Shown here: in pieces, positions 3,108-64,000 of the stretch
How the letters are laid out: every line of letters starts with the position of its first letter
Numbering within the stretch: position 1 is the first letter of the stretch
Assembly: GCA_023144005.1 (NCBI GenBank)
Contig: JAGLGN010000032.1
Location: forward strand, 5,606 to 69,605
Direction of reading: 5' to 3'
Source of the DNA: a bacterium
Lineage (GTDB): Bacteria; AUK180
Length of the DNA: 64,000 bases
Program-made: the position numbers and the translations under genes
The notes under the pieces: model-generated
The model's input: only the letters and a program-made list of their open reading frames with translations
Told to the model about the DNA's origin: nothing
The model's database searches: none

Positions 3108-3451
3108 CCCTTCAACCTTTTTATTTCCGTTATATCAAAGGTGCCGAACCTCTCATAGATCCTGATAGCTACTGCTACCATCAAAGCCGTCACAGCAAGG
3201 CCTATTACAATGGATGTCAGCACAAGCGCTTGAGGAAGCGGGTCCACACTGCTGGCAAGAAACTCATCTAATCGCATCGACTTTGTCATTATCGGAGCGA
3301 TGCCATTGTTCTTATAACCGAGAAGGATCAAGAACAAATTGACTGCATTCTCCATAATAATGAACCCGAGCACGATCTTTATAAGGTTCTTTTTGCAGAA
3401 GATCCCGTACAATCCAATAAAAAACAATATTAAGCAGAGAATATAAATCAT
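3104..3451 (-). CDS. mrpC: Mrp antiporter subunit C (NuoK-like)
   Basis: 115 aa, 3 TM. MIYILCLILFFIGLYGIF...ENAVNLFLILLGY is the NuoK/MnhC pattern. Confidence 0.85.
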   Translation of the reverse strand: MIYILCLILFFIGLYGIFCKKNLIKIVLGFIIMENAVNLFLILLGYKNNGIAPIMTKSMRLDEFLASSVDPLPQALVLTSIVIGLAVTALMVAVAIRIYERFGTFDITEIKRLKG

Positions 3452-3930
3452 TTGTCTTTCTCCGTTTTTGATATGTCCTCATCAAGGATGACTTTATGAG
3501 TAGACAGGACATAGAAGACAAGGAACAATCCCGCCATCACCTTGAGTGCTATCGCGACATTAGATATTGGAATCGTTCCGCCGCTTAGAAATGTAAAGGG
3601 TGTGCCGCCAAATTTCTGATGAAGGAAATTCGCAAAGAACCCACCACCGTAATAGATACCCAGCCATGCTACCGCAATAAAGAGCAAAGCACCAAAGGAC
3701 TCTACCAAAGTGGTTCTCGTCCTTGGAAAGAGTTTATCCGTTCTCTCTTTTCCGAAAGAAAGCATGATGAGGATAAAGCTTGCTGCCATTATCACGCCTC
3801 CAGCAAATCCGCCGCCGGGAGTCAGATGTCCGAAAAGAACGATATAACATCCGAATAGAAAGATAAACCCTTCGATCCAACAGCAAACTGATTTAACTAT
3901 TTCACTTAATCCGCTTTTGTTATTAGTCAT
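3448..3930 (-). CDS. mrpB: Mrp antiporter subunit B (MnhB domain)
   Basis: 160 aa. HLTPGGGFAGGVIMAASFIL is the MnhB-domain signature. Confidence 0.75.
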   Translation of the reverse strand: MTNNKSGLSEIVKSVCCWIEGFIFLFGCYIVLFGHLTPGGGFAGGVIMAASFILIMLSFGKERTDKLFPRTRTTLVESFGALLFIAVAWLGIYYGGGFFANFLHQKFGGTPFTFLSGGTIPISNVAIALKVMAGLFLVFYVLSTHKVILDEDISKTEKDK

Positions 3931-4447: not shown

Positions 4448-6186
4448 ATTACCACCAGTATTATGACTCCGCCTGCAAGTATCCAGGACAGGTAGTTGGA
4501 CAATACACCATTATGCAAATATCTTAGCAATTTAATTATATAAAAAGCCATTGCTTTTAGAACTTCGTAAAGGTCAAAGATCTTCTTCGCCGCCAATCCG
4601 TAAATAAATTTGAAGGGTTGGCCATTCTCAATTCCTTCGTAGAAGTCCGCTCCTGAAATATGCATATCCGGCCTGAGCCCTTCTCCGCCGGCAAAGCCCT
4701 TTACACGGCGGATCTTGATCCTTGATATAAGGAAGATCAATGCTCCGAGGACGAGGCCTACTACGATCAGCAGCATTGCCATTTTCGGATGCCATAGGCC
4801 TGTTAGATCAAGATTTCCATACATTGGTTTGATAAAAAGATCAAAGGCGAATACACCCAGAACAATACAGGAAAGAGCCAGAATGATCTGAGGAAAGACA
4901 AGGGAGAATTTCTCCTTGAACTTTTTCTCTGTTCCTTTTGGATACTTCTTCGCGCCAAGGAATAGCGCATGCATCAGCTTCATAAATGAAGCCAGCGTCA
5001 AGGCGGAGCCGAAGAGGGCGGCGAGCAGACAAAGTATTGAAAGGAACGGATATTGTTCAGCGGTAGCGGCCAATACTCCCTGATAGATCAACCACTTTGA
5101 AAAGAACCCGTTCAATGGAGGAAGTCCGGAAATCGCAAAAGAGGCGATAAGCATACTCGTGAACGTGATCGGAAGGTATTTCGCCATGCCTCCCAATTTA
5201 TCCAGATGATCGGTTTTGCTGACCTTCTCAACCTGACCGGTACCGAGAAAGAGACAGGACTTATAGATCGAATTATTTATCATATGGAAGAGACCTCCGG
5301 CAATACCCAGAGGATTTCCAGTTCCGATACCTAGAACCATGTATCCTACCTGAGAGATCGCATGATAGGACAGAAGTTTTTTCGCCGTATGCTGTGTCAG
5401 AGCCATAAATACAGCGCATATGATCGTTATTGACCCGATAAGCATTACACTTATTTTCACGACCGGAGGAATGGTGACGATAGAGAATATCCTCGCCAGA
5501 AGATAAATACCAAGTAGTTTATCTAAAGAAGCGGGCATAAAAGCTGTCACCGGAGGTGGGGCTTTATCCGCGCATTCCGGTATCCACGTATGAAAAGGCA
5601 TATTTCCCGCTTTGGCAAATGCCGCAGCGGCAATACAGATAAATGCTATCATCGACCAAGTTGAAGAAAGGATGCCGAATGATCCCGTCAGCCGGAATAA
5701 TACAGCAACACCCAGTATCAGGAGAGAATCACTTCCTCCGAGTATGATCAGGGTTTTCTTCGCGGCAAGATTAGCGCCCGAGTTAAATTGCATCATCAGG
5801 TAAAGGGTAATTCCCGAAATACCCCAGAATATGATCAAGACGATCCAGTTCGCGCTCAATATTATGCCGTATGCTGAAGCCAATGTCAGGAAAAAGTAAG
5901 AAAAATACTTATTCAACTTCTTCTTAATGAAACCTGCGGAGTAAATGGAAAGTACCAATCCGAAGAATCCTATAAAGAAAAAGACAAGTTTGGTCAAATT
6001 ATCCCATAAGATCCAAGCTGTATATTTCTCGGGAATGTTCGGGTTGAAAAGCAGGTACACGCCGATCACGATATTAGCGAACGCTAATATCGGTGCAATA
6101 ACTCTCAACGGCTTTTTCCAGTCAGGAGTAATAAAAAGGACAAAGGCTACGATCAGATTAAAAATGATTGGCAGAAAGATATTCAT
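4435..6186 (-). CDS. mrpA: NuoL/MrpA-like antiporter-type membrane subunit
   Basis: 583 aa polytopic protein with the NuoL-family core (FHTWIPECADKAPPPVTAFMPASLDK, HAISQVGYMVLGIG). Confidence 0.8.
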   Translation of the reverse strand: MNIFLPIIFNLIVAFVLFITPDWKKPLRVIAPILAFANIVIGVYLLFNPNIPEKYTAWILWDNLTKLVFFFIGFFGLVLSIYSAGFIKKKLNKYFSYFFLTLASAYGIILSANWIVLIIFWGISGITLYLMMQFNSGANLAAKKTLIILGGSDSLLILGVAVLFRLTGSFGILSSTWSMIAFICIAAAAFAKAGNMPFHTWIPECADKAPPPVTAFMPASLDKLLGIYLLARIFSIVTIPPVVKISVMLIGSITIICAVFMALTQHTAKKLLSYHAISQVGYMVLGIGTGNPLGIAGGLFHMINNSIYKSCLFLGTGQVEKVSKTDHLDKLGGMAKYLPITFTSMLIASFAISGLPPLNGFFSKWLIYQGVLAATAEQYPFLSILCLLAALFGSALTLASFMKLMHALFLGAKKYPKGTEKKFKEKFSLVFPQIILALSCIVLGVFAFDLFIKPMYGNLDLTGLWHPKMAMLLIVVGLVLGALIFLISRIKIRRVKGFAGGEGLRPDMHISGADFYEGIENGQPFKFIYGLAAKKIFDLYEVLKAMAFYIIKLLRYLHNGVLSNYLSWILAGGVIILVVIWFM

Positions 6187-20108: not shown

Positions 20109-20142
20109 ATGTCGCATTGTCGTAATTACGACAATGCGACAT
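20109..20142. promoter_or_regulatory. 34-bp perfect palindrome ATGTCGCATTGTCGTAA|TTACGACAATGCGACAT, a candidate operator
   Basis: Perfect 17+17 dyad read from the sequence. Sits 8 nt after the arsR stop and about 115-150 bp upstream of the PDO-acd-etfBA operon start. No U-tract follows on either strand. Confidence 0.5.
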
Positions 20143-20497: not shown

Positions 20498-20923
20498 TCA
20501 GCGCCTTAACTCTATTAGCTCTCGCAATCTCGCGATATCATTCCGCATTCCCTGCAGCATTTTCGAATCAGCCTTCAGGAGTAATTTCACTCCCGCTGAA
20601 ATAAGTGTCTTTGCAAAACCGGCTGCTATCGAAAGAAGTATAATAAATGCGAATATGCCGATACCGACACGGAAATTTTCGGGGATACTGATATCTACCC
20701 GCCCCGTATCTTGAGTCTTGATCCGGCTTACCATTTCACTTTGGAAATAGTCGACAAGGCCTACTTTTTCAGGTGATTTTATCATACCGATAAGATTGCT
20801 GAAAACCCAGATACCCAGAGCAATGCCGATGCCGATCAGAAGGAAGCCCAGCAGGCGATTTACCCGCGCATTCCTATCTTCACTGGATTCAGTCAAAAGC
20901 TGATTGTCATTTTCAATATCCAT
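20498..20923 (-). CDS. Small membrane protein of unknown function (2 TM)
   Basis: Start trimmed to the ATG at 20923 (MDIENDNQ), which has an AAGGAG RBS. Two hydrophobic helices. No recognisable family. Confidence 0.5.
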   Translation of the reverse strand: MDIENDNQLLTESSEDRNARVNRLLGFLLIGIGIALGIWVFSNLIGMIKSPEKVGLVDYFQSEMVSRIKTQDTGRVDISIPENFRVGIGIFAFIILLSIAAGFAKTLISAGVKLLLKADSKMLQGMRNDIARLRELIELRR

Positions 20924-21101
20924 GTCCGCTCCTTTTCTCATTATACTTGTTTCAGGAAAGTATTTCAAGATATGCGCAGCAAGCCTTTGGCAGTACGAAG
21001 TGGTAGTAGAGGAAATGAATAATTGGAAAATGAATAATGGAGAGGGTATTACGAGAAATTGTCAATTGCTTTTATCCACATTAGACGCGATACGTCAAAC
21101 G

Positions 21102-35111: not shown

Positions 35112-36875
35112 TCAATCAATAAAGGCAAATTTCAAGACCTTTTTAAAGAGCCCACCTGATTTCTCTGCCTTTATATAAACAAGATATATGCCAGATGCTA
35201 AAGAAGTGCCATCAGGGCGTAACTTATCAACGATAAAGGAGTCCTCTACCACATTTGAAGTGCTTGTTTTCGGCGGGAAAGTGTAGATAATACTGCCATC
35301 GATAGAATATATGGAACAGTTAAGCAGCCAACCCTCTTGAGGAACCTCCAGCGCGATAACCGTATTACTCCCGAAGGCGGGATTAGGAACGATCTTCACA
35401 GCTATTTCCTCACTTTCGAACGGCTGCATTTCAATATTTATCTCCTGTGGTGTCTGATCGATGGAGAAAGGGTGAAATACCGTTTGATAACCCGGTTTGG
35501 AGACCATAAGAGTATAGTCCCCTGCTGTCAGCCCCCAGTAATAATTACCAGCGGTATTTGAATACCTATTTCTCACCAGTGAATAATTGTACAGCTCTGT
35601 TATCTTCAGGGTTGCTCCGGAAATGGGTAATCCTGTCTCAGCATCGGAGATACAGCCGTAAATGTGCCTTGAACAGATCTCTTGCGCGAAGCTTAGAAAT
35701 CCTTCATACTGCTCAGGCAAATAGGCCTCAACAACCGACCAGGACGGGTGAAAGCCCAATGATGAGGGGCCGGCCTCGACCGTGAATGCAAGTGTGCCGA
35801 GTTCACCATAAAGCCAATCATCGGAATCACCGGCTGCAGGATACAGGAACACACTCATATAGGGATCATACTTCTCACTGCTGGAATATTTATCCATCAC
35901 CGCTGACATTGAGGAGGCGATCTGAGATAGCCGGCCGTGATCGGGAGTATAAACATAATCGTAGCCGAAAGGAAAGAGGATCATCTCGCCATAAGTGTGA
36001 AAAGACAAAGAGGCGATCGGATTAAGTTCTGTCGCAAGGTCTCTGACCGCGATATTCTCATATTCAGTAAACGGGCCGGTGCCGGGAAAAACATCGCTTG
36101 TAGAATCAAATTCCACACCGGATTCACCCCAATGCCAGTCATAATTTCTATTGGGATCAACACCGTCATCGATAGCGGCATATGATTGATCGGAATTATT
36201 ATCCCTTGTATTCTTTCTCCAGAAAGAGTCAAGTCCGCTGTAAACCACTTCAAGGCCGTCCGGATTGACCATTGGAACAAACCATAACGCATAATTGTCC
36301 ACAAGAGCGGAAAAGAAGGTATCCCCCTCACTGATGTCATTCAGAAGATTTTCCATGATGTAGAGGACGATCTCCGTCGTTTCCAGCTCTCTGGCGTGAT
36401 GCTCGCCCATGATCAGGATATTGAATTCCTCCTCATCCACAGAAGGATTGTCCGAGATCCTCAATGCCCATATGTCACGAGAGGTATAGCTTGCGTTATA
36501 CCCTGTACCCTTGACCTTCTCCCAGGAATCTCCGATATCGTAGATCTCCACATAAGCGGGATAAGAATCCTTCAATGCCTCGATACGCAGCAAAGCAGTA
36601 TCATAGGAGGAATATCCCGTGATCGAGCGGTTGATGGCGATCACCTCAAATCCCGAAGAACCGCAAAGCGCCGCGTACTCCTCTATCTGTGATTCATTCA
36701 ACACAACATCGACCGACGAGGGAATTACCATTTGAATGTCCCAGCCCTTGATCGGCGGGTCAAGAGGGTCGTTGAAGCGGACGAGTACCTGCTCCGCTCC
36801 GATACTCACCGTGATAATAAATAGAATAAGGACAAAAAATGGTACCCGGCCTATATTTTTTACTTTTTTCTCCAT
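35112..36875 (-). CDS. Secreted M14 zinc carboxypeptidase with type-IX-secretion-like C-terminal sorting domain
   Basis: 587 aa. Signal peptide. M14 motifs (HARE, FHTYGEMILFPFGYDYVY). C-terminal roughly 80 aa beta-rich domain ending GIYLVYIKAEKSGGLFKKVLKFAFID, resembling a T9SS CTD. Confidence 0.7.
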   Translation of the reverse strand: MEKKVKNIGRVPFFVLILFIITVSIGAEQVLVRFNDPLDPPIKGWDIQMVIPSSVDVVLNESQIEEYAALCGSSGFEVIAINRSITGYSSYDTALLRIEALKDSYPAYVEIYDIGDSWEKVKGTGYNASYTSRDIWALRISDNPSVDEEEFNILIMGEHHARELETTEIVLYIMENLLNDISEGDTFFSALVDNYALWFVPMVNPDGLEVVYSGLDSFWRKNTRDNNSDQSYAAIDDGVDPNRNYDWHWGESGVEFDSTSDVFPGTGPFTEYENIAVRDLATELNPIASLSFHTYGEMILFPFGYDYVYTPDHGRLSQIASSMSAVMDKYSSSEKYDPYMSVFLYPAAGDSDDWLYGELGTLAFTVEAGPSSLGFHPSWSVVEAYLPEQYEGFLSFAQEICSRHIYGCISDAETGLPISGATLKITELYNYSLVRNRYSNTAGNYYWGLTAGDYTLMVSKPGYQTVFHPFSIDQTPQEINIEMQPFESEEIAVKIVPNPAFGSNTVIALEVPQEGWLLNCSIYSIDGSIIYTFPPKTSTSNVVEDSFIVDKLRPDGTSLASGIYLVYIKAEKSGGLFKKVLKFAFID

Positions 36876-37236
36876 TTCTAAATTACCCTCATCTGTGGGA
36901 TTATACCATAAGCGATGCGAGAATCAAAAAAAAAGTACGAAGTACGGGGTGCGATGTACGAGGTGAAAACGAAAACAATATCCACATCCGTAACCGGAAA
37001 AACATTATTTCGTTGCTTTCAATAAAATCACCCATTAAAACAATAGAACACCGGAGCGAAGGAAGATATGGGACATGTCGTACGCTGCAGGCGTTCGTCT
37101 GTCCCGATGTAAAAGTTCAAAGCAAAGAGTTGACAGGAAGCGAAGCGTGTAAACTCTTTGCCCCGTTAGAATCAAGTACTAACCTTATCCACAACTTCCT
37201 TTTCTGCAATTCTCCATTCTTCCTTTCCCCCTGTTC

Positions 37237-37282
37237 CACTGGGTCCACTTGTACCTGGGTCCACTGCGAAGCGCCATTGTCA
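37237..37282 (+). promoter_or_regulatory. Conserved upstream element, copy A (CACTGGGTCC-ACTTGTACC-TGGGTCCAC-TGCGAAGCGCCATTGTCA)
   Basis: 26 of 27 nt identical to copy B at 63569-63623, which lies in the same orientation relative to its downstream gene. Followed by two CCATTGTCAATT direct repeats. Confidence 0.45.
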
Positions 37283-37357
37283 ATTGTCCATTGTCAATTT
37301 CTCAATTATTCATTCTCCCCTCTGCACCTATCACCTCTTTTCTGCACTTACTCTCTG

Positions 37358-37386
37358 TTGACACCCCCGCACTCATTCAGTATAAT
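37358..37386 (+). promoter_or_regulatory. Consensus sigma-70 promoter TTGACA-17-TATAAT, with the -10 ending 5 nt before the GGDEF ATG (leaderless mRNA)
   Basis: TTGACA at 37358-37363, a 17-nt spacer, TATAAT at 37381-37386, ATG at 37392. No room for an SD. Confidence 0.55.
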
Positions 37387-37391
37387 AACAC

Positions 37392-38309
37392 ATGGCTGAT
37401 AAAACATTTCCGAGCACATATTTCGAAAAGATCATCGAGAATATCTCCGGGGGAGTGTATATAGTGAATACCTCCCGCAAAGTAATCTATTGGAATAAGG
37501 GAGCAGAAGCGATCACCGGCTTTTCCAATGAGGAAATGATGGGTAAGGAATGTGCGTTCGTCGGTGATAAACTTATCAACGGTCACGGGGAAAAACCCTG
37601 CGATGATAAATGTCCGTTCAATATCACCAGCAAAGCAACTGAAAGGCGCAAAGGAGATGAGCTTTTTTTCCTGCACAAAGCAGGACATAGGATCCCTGTT
37701 ATCGTTAGATCGATACCCCTTTTGAATAAAGATGGGGAAGTTGAGGCGATGGGAGAGTATTTCTTTGATAATTCTATCTTTGTTCTCGCTTTGGAACAAC
37801 TTGAGAAATTTCACAATGACTCTACCGTTGACAAATTAACCGGCATCGGGAACAGGAGATACGCCGAATCTCATCTCAAATATCTTTCCAAGAGAAACCT
37901 TTCTTTGAATGACCCCTTCTCTCTTTTATTTGTGGATATTGATGACTTCAAAAAAATAAACGATGTATTCGGGCATGAAACAGGTGACAAGATACTTCAA
38001 ATGACCGTTAATTCGCTCAAGAGCGGATTAAGAGGAACTGATCTCTTGTTCAGGTGGGGAGGTGAGGAATTTCTCATTATTCTTCCATCCACTGAATTAG
38101 AAAGGATCAAGAGCATTGGCGAAAGATGCAGAATGCTGGTTGAGAACTCTTCTATTGAACATGAGGGACAGCGGATATCTGTCACCGTTTCTCTCGGGGG
38201 CACGCAATATATTTCCGGCGAGGACTCTCTTATTGCTGTTGACAGAGCTGATACATATCTTTATTCCAGTAAGAAGGACGGAAAAAACATCACCACCATT
38301 GGGAAATAG
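37392..38309 (+). CDS. PAS-domain diguanylate cyclase (GGDEF)
   Basis: 305 aa. N-terminal PAS. GGDEF domain with an intact GGEEF active-site motif (RWGGEEFLIILP). Confidence 0.85.
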   Translation: MADKTFPSTYFEKIIENISGGVYIVNTSRKVIYWNKGAEAITGFSNEEMMGKECAFVGDKLINGHGEKPCDDKCPFNITSKATERRKGDELFFLHKAGHRIPVIVRSIPLLNKDGEVEAMGEYFFDNSIFVLALEQLEKFHNDSTVDKLTGIGNRRYAESHLKYLSKRNLSLNDPFSLLFVDIDDFKKINDVFGHETGDKILQMTVNSLKSGLRGTDLLFRWGGEEFLIILPSTELERIKSIGERCRMLVENSSIEHEGQRISVTVSLGGTQYISGEDSLIAVDRADTYLYSSKKDGKNITTIGK

Positions 38310-38315
38310 TAATAT

Positions 38316-38350
38316 GGGGACGATGGTTGCAGAAGTTGCAACCTCACCCC
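38316..38350 (+). terminator. Candidate hairpin terminator after the GGDEF gene
   Basis: GGGGAcgatGGTTGCAgaagtTGCAACCtcaCCCC: nested 7-bp and 4-bp stems, followed by a moderately U-rich tract (CAAUAUUCUC). Also forms one arm of a long-range inverted repeat with 38517-38541. Confidence 0.35.
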
Positions 38351-38596
38351 CAATATTCTCGTACTGCCCCTTTATTTACATACTTATCACCCTTTCCACT
38401 TGACATTATGATATTTCTCCATGCATTTCATACAGCCTCGTACCACACTCAACATATATCTATTCGGCCCAGTATAATATGAATTACATGACCCGTAACA
38501 TAAGAATATTCATACTGTGCAACTTTTGCAACCACCGTCCCTATTTTTCCATAATTGACTTTTTCCATCTGATACTATAAACTTTTATGTGGGCAT

Positions 38597-41500
38597 ATGA
38601 AAAAAGACGAACAAAACATCGGCAAGAGCTTCTTAATAGATGATCTTCCATCTCCCTATATGTTGATCAAGAATGAAAAGGTTTCTTCTATGAATGAGAT
38701 CGCCCATTCGCTCACGGGATATGCATCTACCACAGAACCGGTGCCCCTTTCTGAAATATTCGAAGAGGCGGACCTCGCCATTCTACTTAATAAAATAAAC
38801 TCAATAGAGCCCAAGGACTTCAGGAGAATGGACGCGATACTGCTGACAAAAGGGAAAAAGAGGATACATGTCGAATTATTTCTCTCAAGGCCTCACAAGG
38901 AGAAAGCCATCCTATGCTGCCTGAATCCTGTTGAGAAAAGGTATGATTTTCAGAACAAGCTCTTTGAGAGGGAGAGGCAATTCGCCTCATTGCTGAAAAA
39001 TCTTCCGGGGATCGCCTATCGGTGTAAGATCGATGAATACTGGACAATGGAGTTTCTTTCAGAAGGCTGCTATGAAGTTACAGGATACACTCCTGAACAG
39101 CTTATTGAAAATAACGAGCTCGCGTACGCTGATCTGATCAGCGAAGAAGACAAGGAATATGTGAGTAGAACAGTGCTTTCTTCCGTAGAGAAAAGAGAGA
39201 TGTTCACCCTGGTTTATAGAATAAAGACCGCTAAGGACGAGATTAAATGGGTTTGGGAAAAAGGTCAATCATTTGAAAATGAAAAGGGCGAAAAAAGACT
39301 GGAAGGGTTTATTTCAGATATTACCGACCGGATAAAATACGAAAAGGAATTTCAAGAGAGCCGTACCCTCTACGAGCAACTTGTTGAGACATCTCCCGAT
39401 GCCATCATCCTCCTGCATCCCGAGGGAATAATAAAGATGTCCAATTCCAAGACAGCGGAGCTTTTCGGATATGCGGATCCAAACGCTTTTGTAGGGAAGT
39501 CGATCTACGATTATGTTTACCCCGAATACAAATTCCCTTTGGAAAAGTGTATTTCCAGCACAATGATCACAAATGAGCCAGCCGAGAAGGAACTCATCTT
39601 TAAAAAGGGAAATGATGTGATTTTCTGGGGAGATGTCAGAGCATCCGTGATCCGGGATAATCACGGAAATGTTCAAATGATAACCCTTATCATTAGGGAC
39701 ACTACCGAGCGGAATATCACGGATGAGAATCTGAGAAAGAGCCGCGAGAAATACAAAGCGGTCCTTGCCGCTGTTCCCGATCTTATCTTCCTGATGGACA
39801 ATGAAGGTACGTTTCTCGATTACAAAGCGGAGATCGGGCAGGATCTGATACAAAAACCCGATTATTTCATTCATCGCAATGTCTATGAGGTCGTTCCTAA
39901 ATATATTGCCGATCTGACACTGGCACACATCAAAAAAGCGGTGAAAACCAATAAGATGCAGAAGTATGAGTATATGCTTATAAACGCCAATGGGCAGAGA
40001 GAGGATTTTGAATCCAGAGTTGTCCCTGCGGGCAGAGGTGAATGCCTCGCTATTGTCCGAAATATCACCGAAAGAAAAAGGGCTGAGAGAGAGTTGATCT
40101 CTGAAAAAGAAAGATTGGACATTACCTTGAGTTCGATCGGTGATGGAGTGATCTCAACCGACACCAAAGGCAATATTACTCTTATCAACAAGGTAGCGGA
40201 AAAAGTATTGAAAGTGCGGAAAACCGATGTTATGGGACATCCTATCACGAAGTACTTCAAATTACTGCGGTCGCGCGATAAAAAGCCTCTTTCACCGCCG
40301 CCTTTCAAGGCGGTCCTTGTAGACAAAAAAGCGATCGATTACACCGAAAATATCCTACTTTCCTTCACGGATGCTGAACCCATACAGATCGGTTTTTCAC
40401 TCTCGCCCGTTAAGGCAACAGACGGCACATTGATCGGCTCCGTTCTGGCTTTCCGCGATATTACCGATATCCTTCAGATGCAGAATGAAATGGTCAAATC
40501 ACAGCGTTTAGAATCCTTGGGAGTCCTCGCGGGAGGTATCGCGCATGATTTCAAGAATATCCTTACCGTAATATCCGGAAATATACAATTGGCAGAGATG
40601 TTCTACGATAAAAAGGAACAGACCCTGGAAATATTGAGAGAGGCCTATGATGCCTCGGACAAAGCGGTCGAGCTCACTCAGCAGTTCCTCACCTTTTCCA
40701 AGGGCGGCGCACCCGTCAAAAAGGCGGCTTCTCTCTTCGAATTACTGGAAGAATCCATCACCTTCACTTCAAGGGGTTCGAGCATCACACCCAAGATAAA
40801 AGCCGTGGATGGACTATGGAATGCCGAGGTAGATTCCGGGCAGATCAGTCAGGTGGTAAATAACCTGGTTCTCAACGCCATTCAGGCGATGGGCGATAAT
40901 GGTAAATTGACAGTAAGCGCATCCAATGTCAAGTTTAAAAAGGGAGAGCATCACACCCTGCCCGCAGGCAATTATATTAAGATCGATTTTGAAGACAACG
41001 GCCCCGGGATCCCCGAAAAGACATTGGCCAAGATTTGGGACCCGTATTTTACAACAAAGGACGCGGGTAATGGCCTGGGACTTTCATCATGCTACTCAAT
41101 CATCTCAAAGCATGAAGGACATATTTCAGTAACTTCTAAAGTCGGGAAGGGAACCACCTTTACGATTCTGCTGCCGGCACTTGGGAAATCAGGAAAGATC
41201 AAAAGCATGCGTTCCGCAGAGGAATTGAAAAGAGGCAGCGGAAGGATACTTCTGATGGATGATGAAGAAGGGATCAGAGATCTTACTAAACGAATGTTGG
41301 CAGGATTGGGGTATTTCGTCACCGCTGTTTCTGACGGCGACAATTTATTAAAAGAATACAACAAGTCGGTAAAGCAGAAAAAACCTTTTGACCTTTATAT
41401 AATGGACCTTATTATTGCCGGGGGAATGGGCGGCAAGCAAACTATGAAGAAGTTACTGGTAAAAGACCCAAAGGCGAAAGTCATTGTAGTAAGCGCATTT

Positions 41501-41614
41501 TCAAGAGACGATTCAATTACCAATCATAAGGCACTCGGATTTGCGGGAAGCCTCAAAAAGCCATTCAAACTCGAGGAGATGGCGGAGCTCGTTTTCCAAA
41601 TTATCAATTCATAG
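38597..41614 (+). CDS. Multi-PAS hybrid sensor histidine kinase with C-terminal receiver domain
   Basis: 1005 aa. At least four PAS/PAC modules, HisKA H-box (IAHDFKNILTVISGN), HATPase_c (DNGPGIPE...GLGLS), and a REC domain with conserved Asp (DLYIMDLIIAG). Confidence 0.85.
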   Translation: MKKDEQNIGKSFLIDDLPSPYMLIKNEKVSSMNEIAHSLTGYASTTEPVPLSEIFEEADLAILLNKINSIEPKDFRRMDAILLTKGKKRIHVELFLSRPHKEKAILCCLNPVEKRYDFQNKLFERERQFASLLKNLPGIAYRCKIDEYWTMEFLSEGCYEVTGYTPEQLIENNELAYADLISEEDKEYVSRTVLSSVEKREMFTLVYRIKTAKDEIKWVWEKGQSFENEKGEKRLEGFISDITDRIKYEKEFQESRTLYEQLVETSPDAIILLHPEGIIKMSNSKTAELFGYADPNAFVGKSIYDYVYPEYKFPLEKCISSTMITNEPAEKELIFKKGNDVIFWGDVRASVIRDNHGNVQMITLIIRDTTERNITDENLRKSREKYKAVLAAVPDLIFLMDNEGTFLDYKAEIGQDLIQKPDYFIHRNVYEVVPKYIADLTLAHIKKAVKTNKMQKYEYMLINANGQREDFESRVVPAGRGECLAIVRNITERKRAERELISEKERLDITLSSIGDGVISTDTKGNITLINKVAEKVLKVRKTDVMGHPITKYFKLLRSRDKKPLSPPPFKAVLVDKKAIDYTENILLSFTDAEPIQIGFSLSPVKATDGTLIGSVLAFRDITDILQMQNEMVKSQRLESLGVLAGGIAHDFKNILTVISGNIQLAEMFYDKKEQTLEILREAYDASDKAVELTQQFLTFSKGGAPVKKAASLFELLEESITFTSRGSSITPKIKAVDGLWNAEVDSGQISQVVNNLVLNAIQAMGDNGKLTVSASNVKFKKGEHHTLPAGNYIKIDFEDNGPGIPEKTLAKIWDPYFTTKDAGNGLGLSSCYSIISKHEGHISVTSKVGKGTTFTILLPALGKSGKIKSMRSAEELKRGSGRILLMDDEEGIRDLTKRMLAGLGYFVTAVSDGDNLLKEYNKSVKQKKPFDLYIMDLIIAGGMGGKQTMKKLLVKDPKAKVIVVSAFSRDDSITNHKALGFAGSLKKPFKLEEMAELVFQIINS

Positions 41615-41650
41615 ATTTTGAGAATTCCATGTTTTCTGTTAAAATTAAGG

Positions 41651-42232
41651 ATGAAAGAAAAGCATAAAAAGAGACTTAGAACTTACACATATATTGCCAT
41701 ATTAATATCATTTATTGTTCTGTGGATCTTCTTCAGGGAGGAAGCCATTCTATACGGCCTTTCATGCATATTTTTCTTTTCTCTGATCTTCGAAAAGGAC
41801 AAATTATGGGCATGGATACCCGCATTCATAATATCATGGGTATGGGTATACCTCGCCAGAGAAATGTATATGGGATACTCCGGGTTCAAATACAATATAT
41901 ACGGGGTTTCTCTCTTCCCTATTCTGGCCTGGCCCACACTTCTCATGCTGGGATACTTCGTTCTTTTCTCTGCTGTCAAGGCCAAGAATCAACTCTTCAG
42001 ATGGCTCAAGATGTGTATTGTCTGGGCTGTGGGACTTATAATAATCGAAAGTGTGGGTTACAATCTCCTCGGGGTTCATCTGTCTCAAGGAACTCAATAC
42101 GCGGGGTGGCCTATATTGAATTGTTTCCATTCTCCCGCCTGGATGCAAGTATCATATTTCAGTGTCGGTTTTTTCTTTTATGGAAGCATTGCATATTTTG
42201 AAAAACGGCTCAGGGACAAATCAGTGTCCTGA
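41651..42232 (+). CDS. Hypothetical polytopic membrane protein
   Basis: About 5 TM helices. Start at the internal ATG 41651 is preferred over the TTG at 41618. No family recognised. Confidence 0.4.
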   Translation: MKEKHKKRLRTYTYIAILISFIVLWIFFREEAILYGLSCIFFFSLIFEKDKLWAWIPAFIISWVWVYLAREMYMGYSGFKYNIYGVSLFPILAWPTLLMLGYFVLFSAVKAKNQLFRWLKMCIVWAVGLIIIESVGYNLLGVHLSQGTQYAGWPILNCFHSPAWMQVSYFSVGFFFYGSIAYFEKRLRDKSVS

Positions 42233-42368
42233 TTCATAAATACAATGACAATGGCTGATGCTATTTTTTCAGCATGAGAGGAGCAAGGGACTCCACACTC
42301 AATGTTCGTTGAAATTGACTCAAAGCCCGGCACTACACTGCTACCATCTTTATGAATCAGGACACTAC

Positions 42369-63513: not shown

Positions 63514-63568
63514 GTATTACAGGGATATTTCCCTTTATTTTCTAGTGTGCTCTAATTCATAAATCCGA

Positions 63569-63623
63569 TGACAATGACGCTTCGCAGTGGACCCAGTGGA
63601 CCCAGGGACAAGTGTACCAGTGG
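63569..63623 (-). promoter_or_regulatory. Conserved upstream element, copy B (CCACTGGTAC-ACTTGTCCC-TGGGTCCAC-TGGGTCCAC-TGCGAAGCGTCATTGTCA on the minus strand)
   Basis: Shares 26 of 27 proximal nt with copy A (37237-37282), with one extra TGGGTCCAC unit. Lies 55 bp upstream of the -35. Confidence 0.45.
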
Positions 63624-64000
63624 AGAAGGAATATTGTGAGAACCGGTAAGTATTATATTTGTCATTCTGAAAGAGCGGTAGCGACTGAAGAATCCATCTC
63701 TTCGAGGTACGGGGTACGAAGTGCGCAGTGGGGAAAAGTCGGGATGAAATAAAACTGGATCCCACGGTCGCCAACTCCCTCTGGATGACACTCTCCACTT
63801 CTATATTTTCCCTCCCGCATCCGCTCAACGGGAGCCCGGCAGCGCCGGGCGACCAACCCAAAAGAGTTTTGAACCATTTAAGCGACATTGACATTTTTAA
63901 CGGCAGGAATGAATGGTGGCGAAGCCGAAAATATCCAATTGTCTGAGTGAGCGTTCGTTAGAGCTTTTAGAGGCGGGAACGAATGTTCGAGGAAAAATGA

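Follow-up and report, generated by a model that had tools for sequence, protein, structure and literature searches.

Two unusually long intergenic regions in a 64,000-nucleotide stretch of the bacterial contig JAGLGN010000032.1 (GTDB lineage AUK180) share an element of about 50 bp, and the question this raises is whether the shared sequence regulates the two genes downstream of it or is a repeat that merely lies there. One copy (copy A) is found upstream of a gene for a GGDEF protein and the other (copy B) upstream of a gene for an acidic Roadblock protein, and a sequence-only reading of the window, as we call the whole 64-kb stretch, had proposed either a shared cis-regulatory site that would make the two genes a co-regulon, or a family of small repetitive intergenic elements, or a noncoding RNA (ncRNA). 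We think it probable that this ~50-bp element is a module of a mosaic, lineage-specific family of interspersed repeats that resemble transposable elements of the miniature inverted-repeat type (MITEs), and that it is not a regulatory site. At least three related genomes carry the family at many unrelated loci. Between near-identical genomes, elements are present or absent at orthologous sites and modules are swapped. Its units are modular and bounded by terminal inverted repeats (TIRs), their ends are used as stops and starts by adjoining genes, and the module has been incorporated in frame into an open reading frame (ORF).

The shared sequence upstream of both promoters is real. Copy A reads CCACTGGGTCCACTTGTACCTGGGTCCACTGCGAAGCGCCATTGTCA on the plus strand and copy B CCACTGGTACACTTGTCCCTGGGTCCACTGGGTCCACTGCGAAGCGTCATTGTCA on the minus strand. 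A repeat search recovered the near-identical proximal block that had been reported (37255-37282 on the plus strand against 63569-63596 on the minus strand, 28 nt, 96% complementary), together with the more distal blocks common to both copies (37242-37266 against 63594-63618, 25 nt, 92%; 37223-37249 against 63586-63612, 27 nt, 81%). The 18-mer TGGGTCCACTGCGAAGCG, which in copy B occupies 63578-63595 on the minus strand, has two exact copies in the window against 0.02 expected, and none of 100 shuffles reached two. The word TGGGTCCAC is repeated as described, with four exact copies in the window, two per element copy (at 37240 and 37256 in copy A). A promoter scan placed promoters where the sequence-only reading had put them, in the same orientation to both genes and 56-76 bp downstream of the copies, and a domain search confirmed the downstream genes, a PAS-GGDEF protein after copy A and a TPR, acidic and Roadblock protein after copy B. 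The intergenic regions are also as long as claimed: 516 bp for A, and 750 bp in full for B, as measured on L038, a contig of the same genome that extends further (67455 minus the L038 coordinate gives the window coordinate). The short words said to be shared by the two regions are present, GTACGAAG at 36935 and 63714 and GTACGGGG at 36942 and 63707, but all four lie on the plus strand, so that they are oppositely oriented to the two downstream genes.

What had been missed is that each copy is a degenerate tandem array with a period of 9 nt, as found with Tandem Repeats Finder (TRF; Table 1). Four to five word copies, in the variants TGGGTCCAC, TCCACTGGG, TGGTTCAC, TGGGACAC, TGTTCCAC and TTGTCCC, are closed by CTGCGAAGCG, that is CT-GCGAAGC-G. 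GCGNAGC sequences form a mini-hairpin of two G-C pairs and a sheared G-A pair. This DNA mini-hairpin is very stable, melting at 76 C when N is A, at 73 C when it is G, at 71 C when it is C and at 70 C when it is T (PMC13037366). Both copies match the mini-hairpin sequence, the hairpin itself being predicted. The closure extends beyond this module: in the related loci that were sampled, CT-GCGNAGC-RT also ends arrays of the CTTGTGC words some 30 times, with N mostly A and all four bases occurring, and GCGNAGC thereby closes two different word families in relatives.

The words of the module are direct repeats without self-complementarity, and the shared element shows no excess folding over shuffles on either strand (z = +0.34, +1.79, +0.43 and +1.60). 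Were it a small ncRNA or part of a family of structured 5' leaders, one could understand why the sequence is conserved in long intergenic regions, and a neighbouring repeat, element X, does fold strongly (37060-37170). The shared element itself, however, folds no better than shuffles, lies upstream and not downstream of the predicted promoters, occurs in both orientations relative to genes, and neither intergenic region has an Rfam match even at E<=1 (at the gathering threshold the whole window gives only two tRNAs). We consider the ncRNA proposal extremely improbable.

In the regulatory proposal, the iterated TGGGTCCAC words would act as operator or activator sites of one transcription factor for both genes. 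Short tandem words could in principle be iterated binding sites, and the like distance and orientation of both copies relative to consensus -35 boxes fits such a role. The sequence-only reading had suggested a genome-wide pattern search and had taken hundreds of copies irrespective of gene context to speak against a regulon, and we found many copies in all kinds of gene context. Our scan for the 18-mer covered one genome per species (GTDB representatives) and returned 29 loci. One metagenome-assembled genome (MAG), JAGLWT01, has 17 exact copies on 14 contigs, and another, JAIVYW01, which is labelled Candidatus Atribacteria and has an M14 peptidase 94% identical to that of the window, has six, so that these two related MAGs (23 copies) and the window (two) together hold 25. 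We take the remaining seven hits to be chance matches, because they are single copies in seven unrelated, mostly high-GC genomes or in coding sequence and have no repeat context. When the context of the 25 copies was set by neighbouring long ORFs, with spurious repeat-crossing ORFs corrected by hand and L038 used for copy B, four copies fell in divergent spacers, four in tandem spacers in the sense orientation, seven in tandem spacers in antisense, two in convergent spacers and four within a long acidic ORF that runs antisense to the element, with the other four in no assigned class. It follows from these counts that the module has no fixed relation to promoters; in relatives it lies in every spacer type, including 3' of genes.

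Comparison of orthologous promoters, also suggested by the sequence-only reading, showed that neither copy is kept, a lack of conservation in relatives being part of the second refuting outcome that this reading had named. In JAUVAC01 (L039), whose M24 peptidase is 99% identical to that of the window, the promoter, leader and start of the acidic gene match the window genome at 100% identity for more than 170 nt, yet only 14 nt (AGGT-AAGTCAATTCCAAT-ACACT) separate the stop of the upstream YggS-like gene from this promoter, against about 660 bp including copy B in the window genome. Copy A is replaced in L002, a contig from another sample of the same study in which the GGDEF protein and its promoter are identical: CTTGTGCC words with GCGCAGCG stand there in place of the TGGGTCCAC array and GCGAAGCG, the following CCATTGTC heptamers are kept, and the block of GTACGNN heptamers and element X is inverted. 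The sequence downstream of the module varies freely as well, GCGAAGCG being followed by the TIR (TCATTGTCATCGnATTTATGAATCAGnnCAC) in six copies, by CTTGTGC words in 12, by TTGAAC words in five and by other sequence in two. With the module in all spacer types, and absent or replaced at identical promoters, we judge a shared cis-regulatory site to be very unlikely.

The proposal of a small repetitive intergenic family is thus the one borne out, and the TIRs and the polymorphism allow us to specify it as MITE-like. The TIR consensus is AGTGnnCTGATTCATAAAT, also written AGTGnnCTGATTCATAAA for the ends of the element that contains copy B (element B). Six TIR-bounded units have TIRs of 15-28 nt that are 84-100% complementary, and four of the six carry the 18-mer module; they hold only low-complexity or spurious ORFs, with no transposase ORF. 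The right end of the 674-bp unit has copy B as its subterminal part, and the CATTGTCA tail of copy B is the inner part of the TIR; the left TIR of this unit lies about 220 bp beyond the window, at ~64220, and overlaps the stop of the YggS-like gene. A quarter of the module copies likewise adjoin the inner part of the TIR (TCATTGTCATCG-ATTTATGAAT-CAGnnCACT), and copy A keeps only its inner 9 nt, the outer part missing. One strand of the family TIR (CTGATTCATAAAT / ATTTATGAATCAG) contains TGA and TAA, the opposite strand ATG. The TIR provides the stop codon of three genes, namely the window gene at 41618-42232 (TGA), a 289-aa gene in L023 (TIR at 5331-5345) and the YggS-like gene (L038 3234-3256), as well as the predicted start of bacA in L033 (ATG in the right end, 4913-4933, according to the gene caller). 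Insertions at gene boundaries leave ORFs intact because the TIR supplies these stop and start codons.

Table 1. Features of the shared module, the surrounding mosaics and the TIR-bounded units (window coordinates unless a related locus is named).
Feature	Position	Strand	Basis or remarks
Copy A array of the 9-nt word TCCACTGGG, 3.8 copies	37235-37266	+	TRF, period 9
Copy B array of the same 9-nt word, 4.9 copies	63585-63624	-	TRF
GCGAAGC closing motif ("punctuation"), copy A	37266-37272	+	sequence
GCGAAGC closing motif, copy B	63579-63585	-	sequence
CCATTGTCA followed by ATTGTCA heptamer array	37274-37299	+	TRF, period 7, 3.4 copies; comparison with TIR-bearing copies
GGDEF gene promoter, TTGACA-17-TATAAT (12/12)	37358-37386	+	76 nt past end of copy A; outside the repeat mosaic
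Acidic TPR-Roadblock gene promoter, TTGACT-17-TATAAT (11/12)	63513-63485	-	56 nt past end of copy B; 31 nt beyond TIR end
Whole repeat mosaic A, between divergent M14-peptidase and GGDEF promoters	36928-37328		blastn against related loci, depth up to 15
GTACGNN heptamer array (GTACGAAG, GTACGGGG words)	36933-36965	+	TRF, period 7/14
Element X, a nested repeat; strong hairpins at 37070-37105 and 37122-37161	36976-37200	+	folding z -3.4 / -4.6
Element B, part inside the window (674-bp TIR-bounded unit, ~680)	63544-64000	-	blastn; inverted-repeat search; absent from L039
Right TIR of element B, TCATTGTCATCGGATTTATGAATTAGAGCACACT	63544-63577	-	L038 arms 3235-3251 / 3892-3908, 17 nt, 94%
Hairpin-type module GGATTCTTCAGTCGCTACCGCTCTTTCAGAATGAC in element B	63624-63702	-	blastn
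Reverse GTACGNN heptamers in element B	63695-63727	-	blastn
Module GTCATCCAGAGGG..GGGATCCAG in element B	63744-63800	-	blastn
TIR-bounded unit, window	42223-42366		144 bp; TIR AGTGTCCTGATTCATAAA, 18/18 complementary
TIR-bounded unit, L033	4699-4933		235 bp; TIR 21 nt, 95%
TIR-bounded unit, L011	6757-7086		330 bp; TIR 28 nt, 86%
TIR-bounded unit, L031	1500-1705		206 bp; TIR 19 nt, 84%
TIR-bounded unit, L023	5331-5558		228 bp; TIR 15 nt, 93%
TIR-bounded unit, L038	3235-3908		674 bp; TIR 17 nt, 94%

Little in either intergenic region is unique. When the window and 20 related loci were all compared with one another by blastn, essentially all pieces of 36928-37328 and of 63545-63815 were seen to recur at other loci, and similar mosaics occupy most intergenic spacers of those 20 loci, where repeats make up about 29% of intergenic bases and about 4% of ORF bases. 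The M14-peptidase promoter lies at 36927-36900 on the minus strand, and mosaic A exactly fills the gap from there to the GGDEF promoter. Such abundance and fit might be taken to suggest an exapted architectural role with a genome-wide structural function, like that of repetitive extragenic palindromic (REP) sequences and bacterial interspersed mosaic elements (BIMEs), with the repeats binding a nucleoid protein, gyrase or primase or insulating promoters, and the retention of GCGNAGC across word families could be read in the same way, as mini-hairpins are known at priming sites (PMC13037366). Near-identical genomes, however, can dispense with individual copies, the positions of the copies showed no regularity, and the protein binding is hypothetical, such that a role of this kind seems to us decidedly unlikely.

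At the TPR/bacA junction, aligned in four genomes, a 235-bp insert is present in JAIVZQ01 (L033) only and is missing from JAIVYW01 (L034), from the window (33588/33589) and from a more distant relative (L036). The ends of the insert are inverted, GTGGTCTGATTCATAAAGGCG ... CGCATTTATGAATCAGACCAC, and inside it are word modules together with a hairpin module that also occurs at window 63744-63800. This clean TIR-to-TIR insert, at a junction that is repeat-free in three other genomes, is what we would expect of a transposable unit, as are six discrete units with matching TIRs at both ends and the recurrence of the same TIR at unrelated loci, adjoining gene stops and starts. A number of observations nevertheless weigh against a MITE-like family. 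An inverted-repeat search found no TIRs around the mosaic that contains copy A. Five complete units have no consistent flanking duplication, with TA or CTAG preceding GTG at about half of 13 ends. Neither a transposase with matching TIRs nor a pair of TIRs 1-2.5 kb apart was found in ~200 kb of related loci. A few bases next to the left junction differ in both comparisons of a filled with an empty site (L033 and L039), and the "empty" site of L039 has the outermost AGGT/CACT; given these junction changes and the retained AGGT/CACT, the events could be recombination, replacement or internal deletion and not classical cut-and-paste insertion. Moreover, it is conceivable from the sequence that the module has acquired a secondary, exapted effect on the transcription of both genes.

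Several of these points would be accommodated if no transposition were involved at all. Tracts like the short tandemly repeated repetitive (STRR) sequences of cyanobacteria could arise by slippage and be spread or exchanged only by homologous or microhomology recombination and gene conversion, the TIR-bounded units being one more module among others. The lack of TIRs around copy A and of an evident target-site duplication, together with the altered junction bases, would agree with this, as would the module swap in L002 with its flanks kept, the occurrence of modules in either relative orientation and the coincidence of repeats with a synteny break (see below). The discrete units, the clean insert and the recurring TIR are harder to explain in this way, and we regard recombination alone as unlikely, though it deserves to be taken seriously.

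We return to a mobile, MITE-like family whose full elements are 144-680 bp long, TIR-bounded and filled with interchangeable modules, comprising arrays of 7-9-nt words, GCGNAGC, hairpin modules and nested repeats. A transposase or recombinase recognising the TIRs would move the elements in trans, and the internal arrays may diversify through replication slippage and through recombination between copies; we speculate that slippage could be aided by the single-strand GCGNAGC mini-hairpin, through stalling and template switching. Element B would have landed between the YggS-like gene and the promoter of the acidic gene, and copy A lies in a TIR-less, rearranged mosaic between two divergent promoters. 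The like placement of the two copies relative to promoters would then be a coincidence, reflecting where selfish or neutral repeats are tolerated. A bolder version is that this is a distinct mobile mosaic element whose interior is reshuffled by a dedicated hairpin-dependent mechanism, be it GCGNAGC-primed slippage and template switching or a single-strand transposase or recombinase that leaves no target-site duplication. We hold this to be quite unlikely, but if true it would mean that word arrays are replaced like cassettes upstream of unchanged promoters and that acidic linkers are donated in frame, so that this uncultured lineage would have its own inbuilt supply of rapid variation in regulation and in protein linkers.

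The module also occurs within coding sequence: in JAGLWT01 its reverse complement encodes TLRSGPSEPVDPVEQQ three times, in frame with the surrounding ORF (L020, 91-3462). The host ORF of 1123 aa has weak N-terminal TPR matches, a hydrophobic stretch and a long, acidic, low-complexity middle, and the orthologous position in JAIVYW01 (L024, 1-1549) likewise carries an in-frame module. Repeat modules appear to have been recruited as an acidic linker, or the reverse. We also note that GDKEQGT, from CTTGTCC words, occurs many times in the 1123-aa acidic protein.

No description of this repeat family was found in the open-access literature searched; it is an undescribed and very dynamic family in an uncultured lineage, of a MITE-like mosaic kind with some unusual traits. 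Its units have the sizes of MITEs (144, 206, 228, 235, 330 and 674 bp), they have TIRs, and they occur as dispersed copies with insertion polymorphism. Known bacterial MITEs, such as Correia/NEMIS in Neisseria, RUP in Streptococcus pneumoniae, MITEAba12 and Nezha in cyanobacteria, are similarly small, noncoding, TIR-bounded and present in many dispersed copies, with presence/absence polymorphism between close genomes and sites at gene boundaries where they supply stop or start codons. Unlike these, the elements described here have no clear target-site duplication and no parent insertion sequence in the ~200 kb of related loci, and their interior is made of shuffled word arrays and hairpin modules and not of a transposase remnant, so that ends are shared and content is not.

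The arrays themselves (ATTGTCA, GTACGAG, TCCACTGGG) are reminiscent of STRR sequences of Calothrix and Nostoc and of the GGGAATC repeats of Xanthomonas, which are also intergenic, degenerate arrays of 7-9-nt words. Heptamer arrays in Xanthomonas and Nostoc vary extensively between close relatives (PMC4692102). Here TRF gives periods of 7 and 9, and the number and type of words vary between copies and strains, a likeness of form only and not of homology. Some words resemble STRR units (TTGGTCA, CCCCAGT). The lineage, however, is not cyanobacterial, and the arrays lie inside TIR-bounded units closed by GCGNAGC, a closure that to our knowledge has not been described for STRR sequences.

Modular intergenic composition is also known from BOX elements of S. 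pneumoniae and BIMEs of Escherichia coli, in which a small set of modules is combined in variable number and order and composition differs among copies. The modules of BIMEs are REP palindromes with a GTAG tag that are mobilised by REP-associated tyrosine transposases (RAYTs). There is no sequence relationship between these elements and ours, and the module here is a direct-repeat array. REP sequences, and the REPINs built on them, are imperfect palindromes of 20-40 bp with a GTAG or CGTC tag and are RAYT-associated. We rejected an identity with REP, BIME or REPIN, as our module is a direct tandem array without self-complementarity; not being a palindrome, it is not a REP or REPIN. The small dispersed repeats (SDRs) of Nostocaceae are reportedly very small mobile units that nest in each other and are associated with heptamer arrays, according to Elhai et al. 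in 2008; they belong to a different lineage and have different sequences. Rickettsia palindromic elements (RPEs), finally, are palindromic repeat units that sit in frame in protein-coding genes, with ordinary enzymes as hosts. The in-frame insertions in the acidic ORF of L020 resemble these, but the host here is a low-complexity acidic linker.

These results matter for annotation. The GGDEF and acidic Roadblock genes should not be joined in a regulon on this motif alone, and the word-like motifs of the lineage should be masked as repeats before motif discovery. The family marks synteny breaks, makes the intergenic regions of near-identical genomes differ in length by hundreds of bp, alters the ends of genes by supplying stops and starts, and has been taken into coding sequence. 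This makes it useful as a strain marker, and it offers a modest but tractable case for studying the origin and movement of STRR-like arrays.

One such synteny break lies at copy A. The M14 peptidase is 94% identical in three MAGs, where its upstream neighbour is a co-directional 678-aa TPR gene with no spacer; we sought this TPR gene across the whole window and it is absent. The GGDEF gene has no close orthologue, its best non-identical homologue being 44% identical and in unrelated organisms, and a 305-aa ORF in L009 was considered as an orthologue and rejected. Because the neighbour of the M14 gene differs, the TPR gene is absent and the GGDEF gene lacks a close orthologue, we place mosaic A at a rearrangement breakpoint. 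Mosaic A and the 144-bp MITE flank, one on each side, the block of GGDEF gene, hybrid histidine kinase-response regulator gene and 204-aa ORF (37392-42232), and the whole (36876-42366) has the appearance of a signalling island, specific to the strain and possibly acquired, at a synteny break marked by repeats.

Several further observations concern the mosaics. ORFs of 186 aa (36839-37399, plus strand) and 119 aa (63535-63894, minus strand) run through them; these are almost certainly low-complexity repeat artefacts and should not be called genes, and the 119-aa ORF has no Pfam match. A candidate outward promoter in element B, TTCAGAATGACAAATATAAT, was rejected for its wrong spacing to any -35-like hexamer and was not reported by the promoter scan. 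Viral contigs gave one chance match to the 18-mer, in coding-like sequence (L043), and none to the TIR pattern, and thus no link to phages; the sole metagenome-contig match to the TIR pattern (L037), which lies between two convergent ORFs with no repeat context, was set aside as irrelevant. Element X (~225 nt) has copies in L007, L010, L028 and L002 that preserve both stems through compensatory changes, for example ACGCC/GGCGT against ACTCC/GGAGT and, in the second stem, A-U to G-C. In L010 and strain variant L002 the element is reversed with respect to the 18-mer. Rfam gives no match to element X, which could represent either a structured MITE or a family of small RNAs. The mosaics also contain modules of a hairpin type, GGATKSATYC...stem-loop...RRATGAC, such as GGATGGATTCCCGATCAAGTCGGGAATGAC, GTCATCCTGAGCTTTTCCGCGAAGGATCC and GGATTCTTCAGTCGCTACCGCTCTTTCAGAATGAC, at window 63624-63702 and 63744-63800 and also in L007, L010, L011, L015, L018, L022 and L031. 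They are presumably like short repeats that are widespread in many uncultured and Bacteroidota/Chlorobi-type genomes and give spurious "...LRMT"- or "VIPAKAGI"-like ORFs.

The same word vocabulary appears elsewhere in the window at 20990-21070, with CACTTCGTAC, ATTATTCATT twice and CAATTGACAATTTCTC on the minus strand, lacking both the 18-mer and a TIR; this tract adjoins the upstream side of a promoter-like site, TTGAAA-17-TATAAT as read by eye, of the gene at 20498-20968 on the minus strand. The gap from the GGDEF stop codon to the start of the histidine-kinase gene is occupied by another MITE-like unit, which belongs to a different family (38306-38552); its TIRs are 35 nt long (83%), ATAGTAATATGGGGACGATGGTTGCAGAAGTTGCA / TGCAACTTTTGCAACCACCGTCCCTATTTTTCCAT, and similar GGGACGGTGGTTG ends are found in L006, L015, L020 and L031. 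A perfect 34-nt palindrome (ATGTCGCATTGTCGTAA/TTACGACAATGCGACAT) at 20109-20142, between two genes, recurs in near-identical form in L020 (3727-3763) and L024 (2026-2063), and is a further dispersed repeat, perhaps REP-like or a bidirectional terminator.

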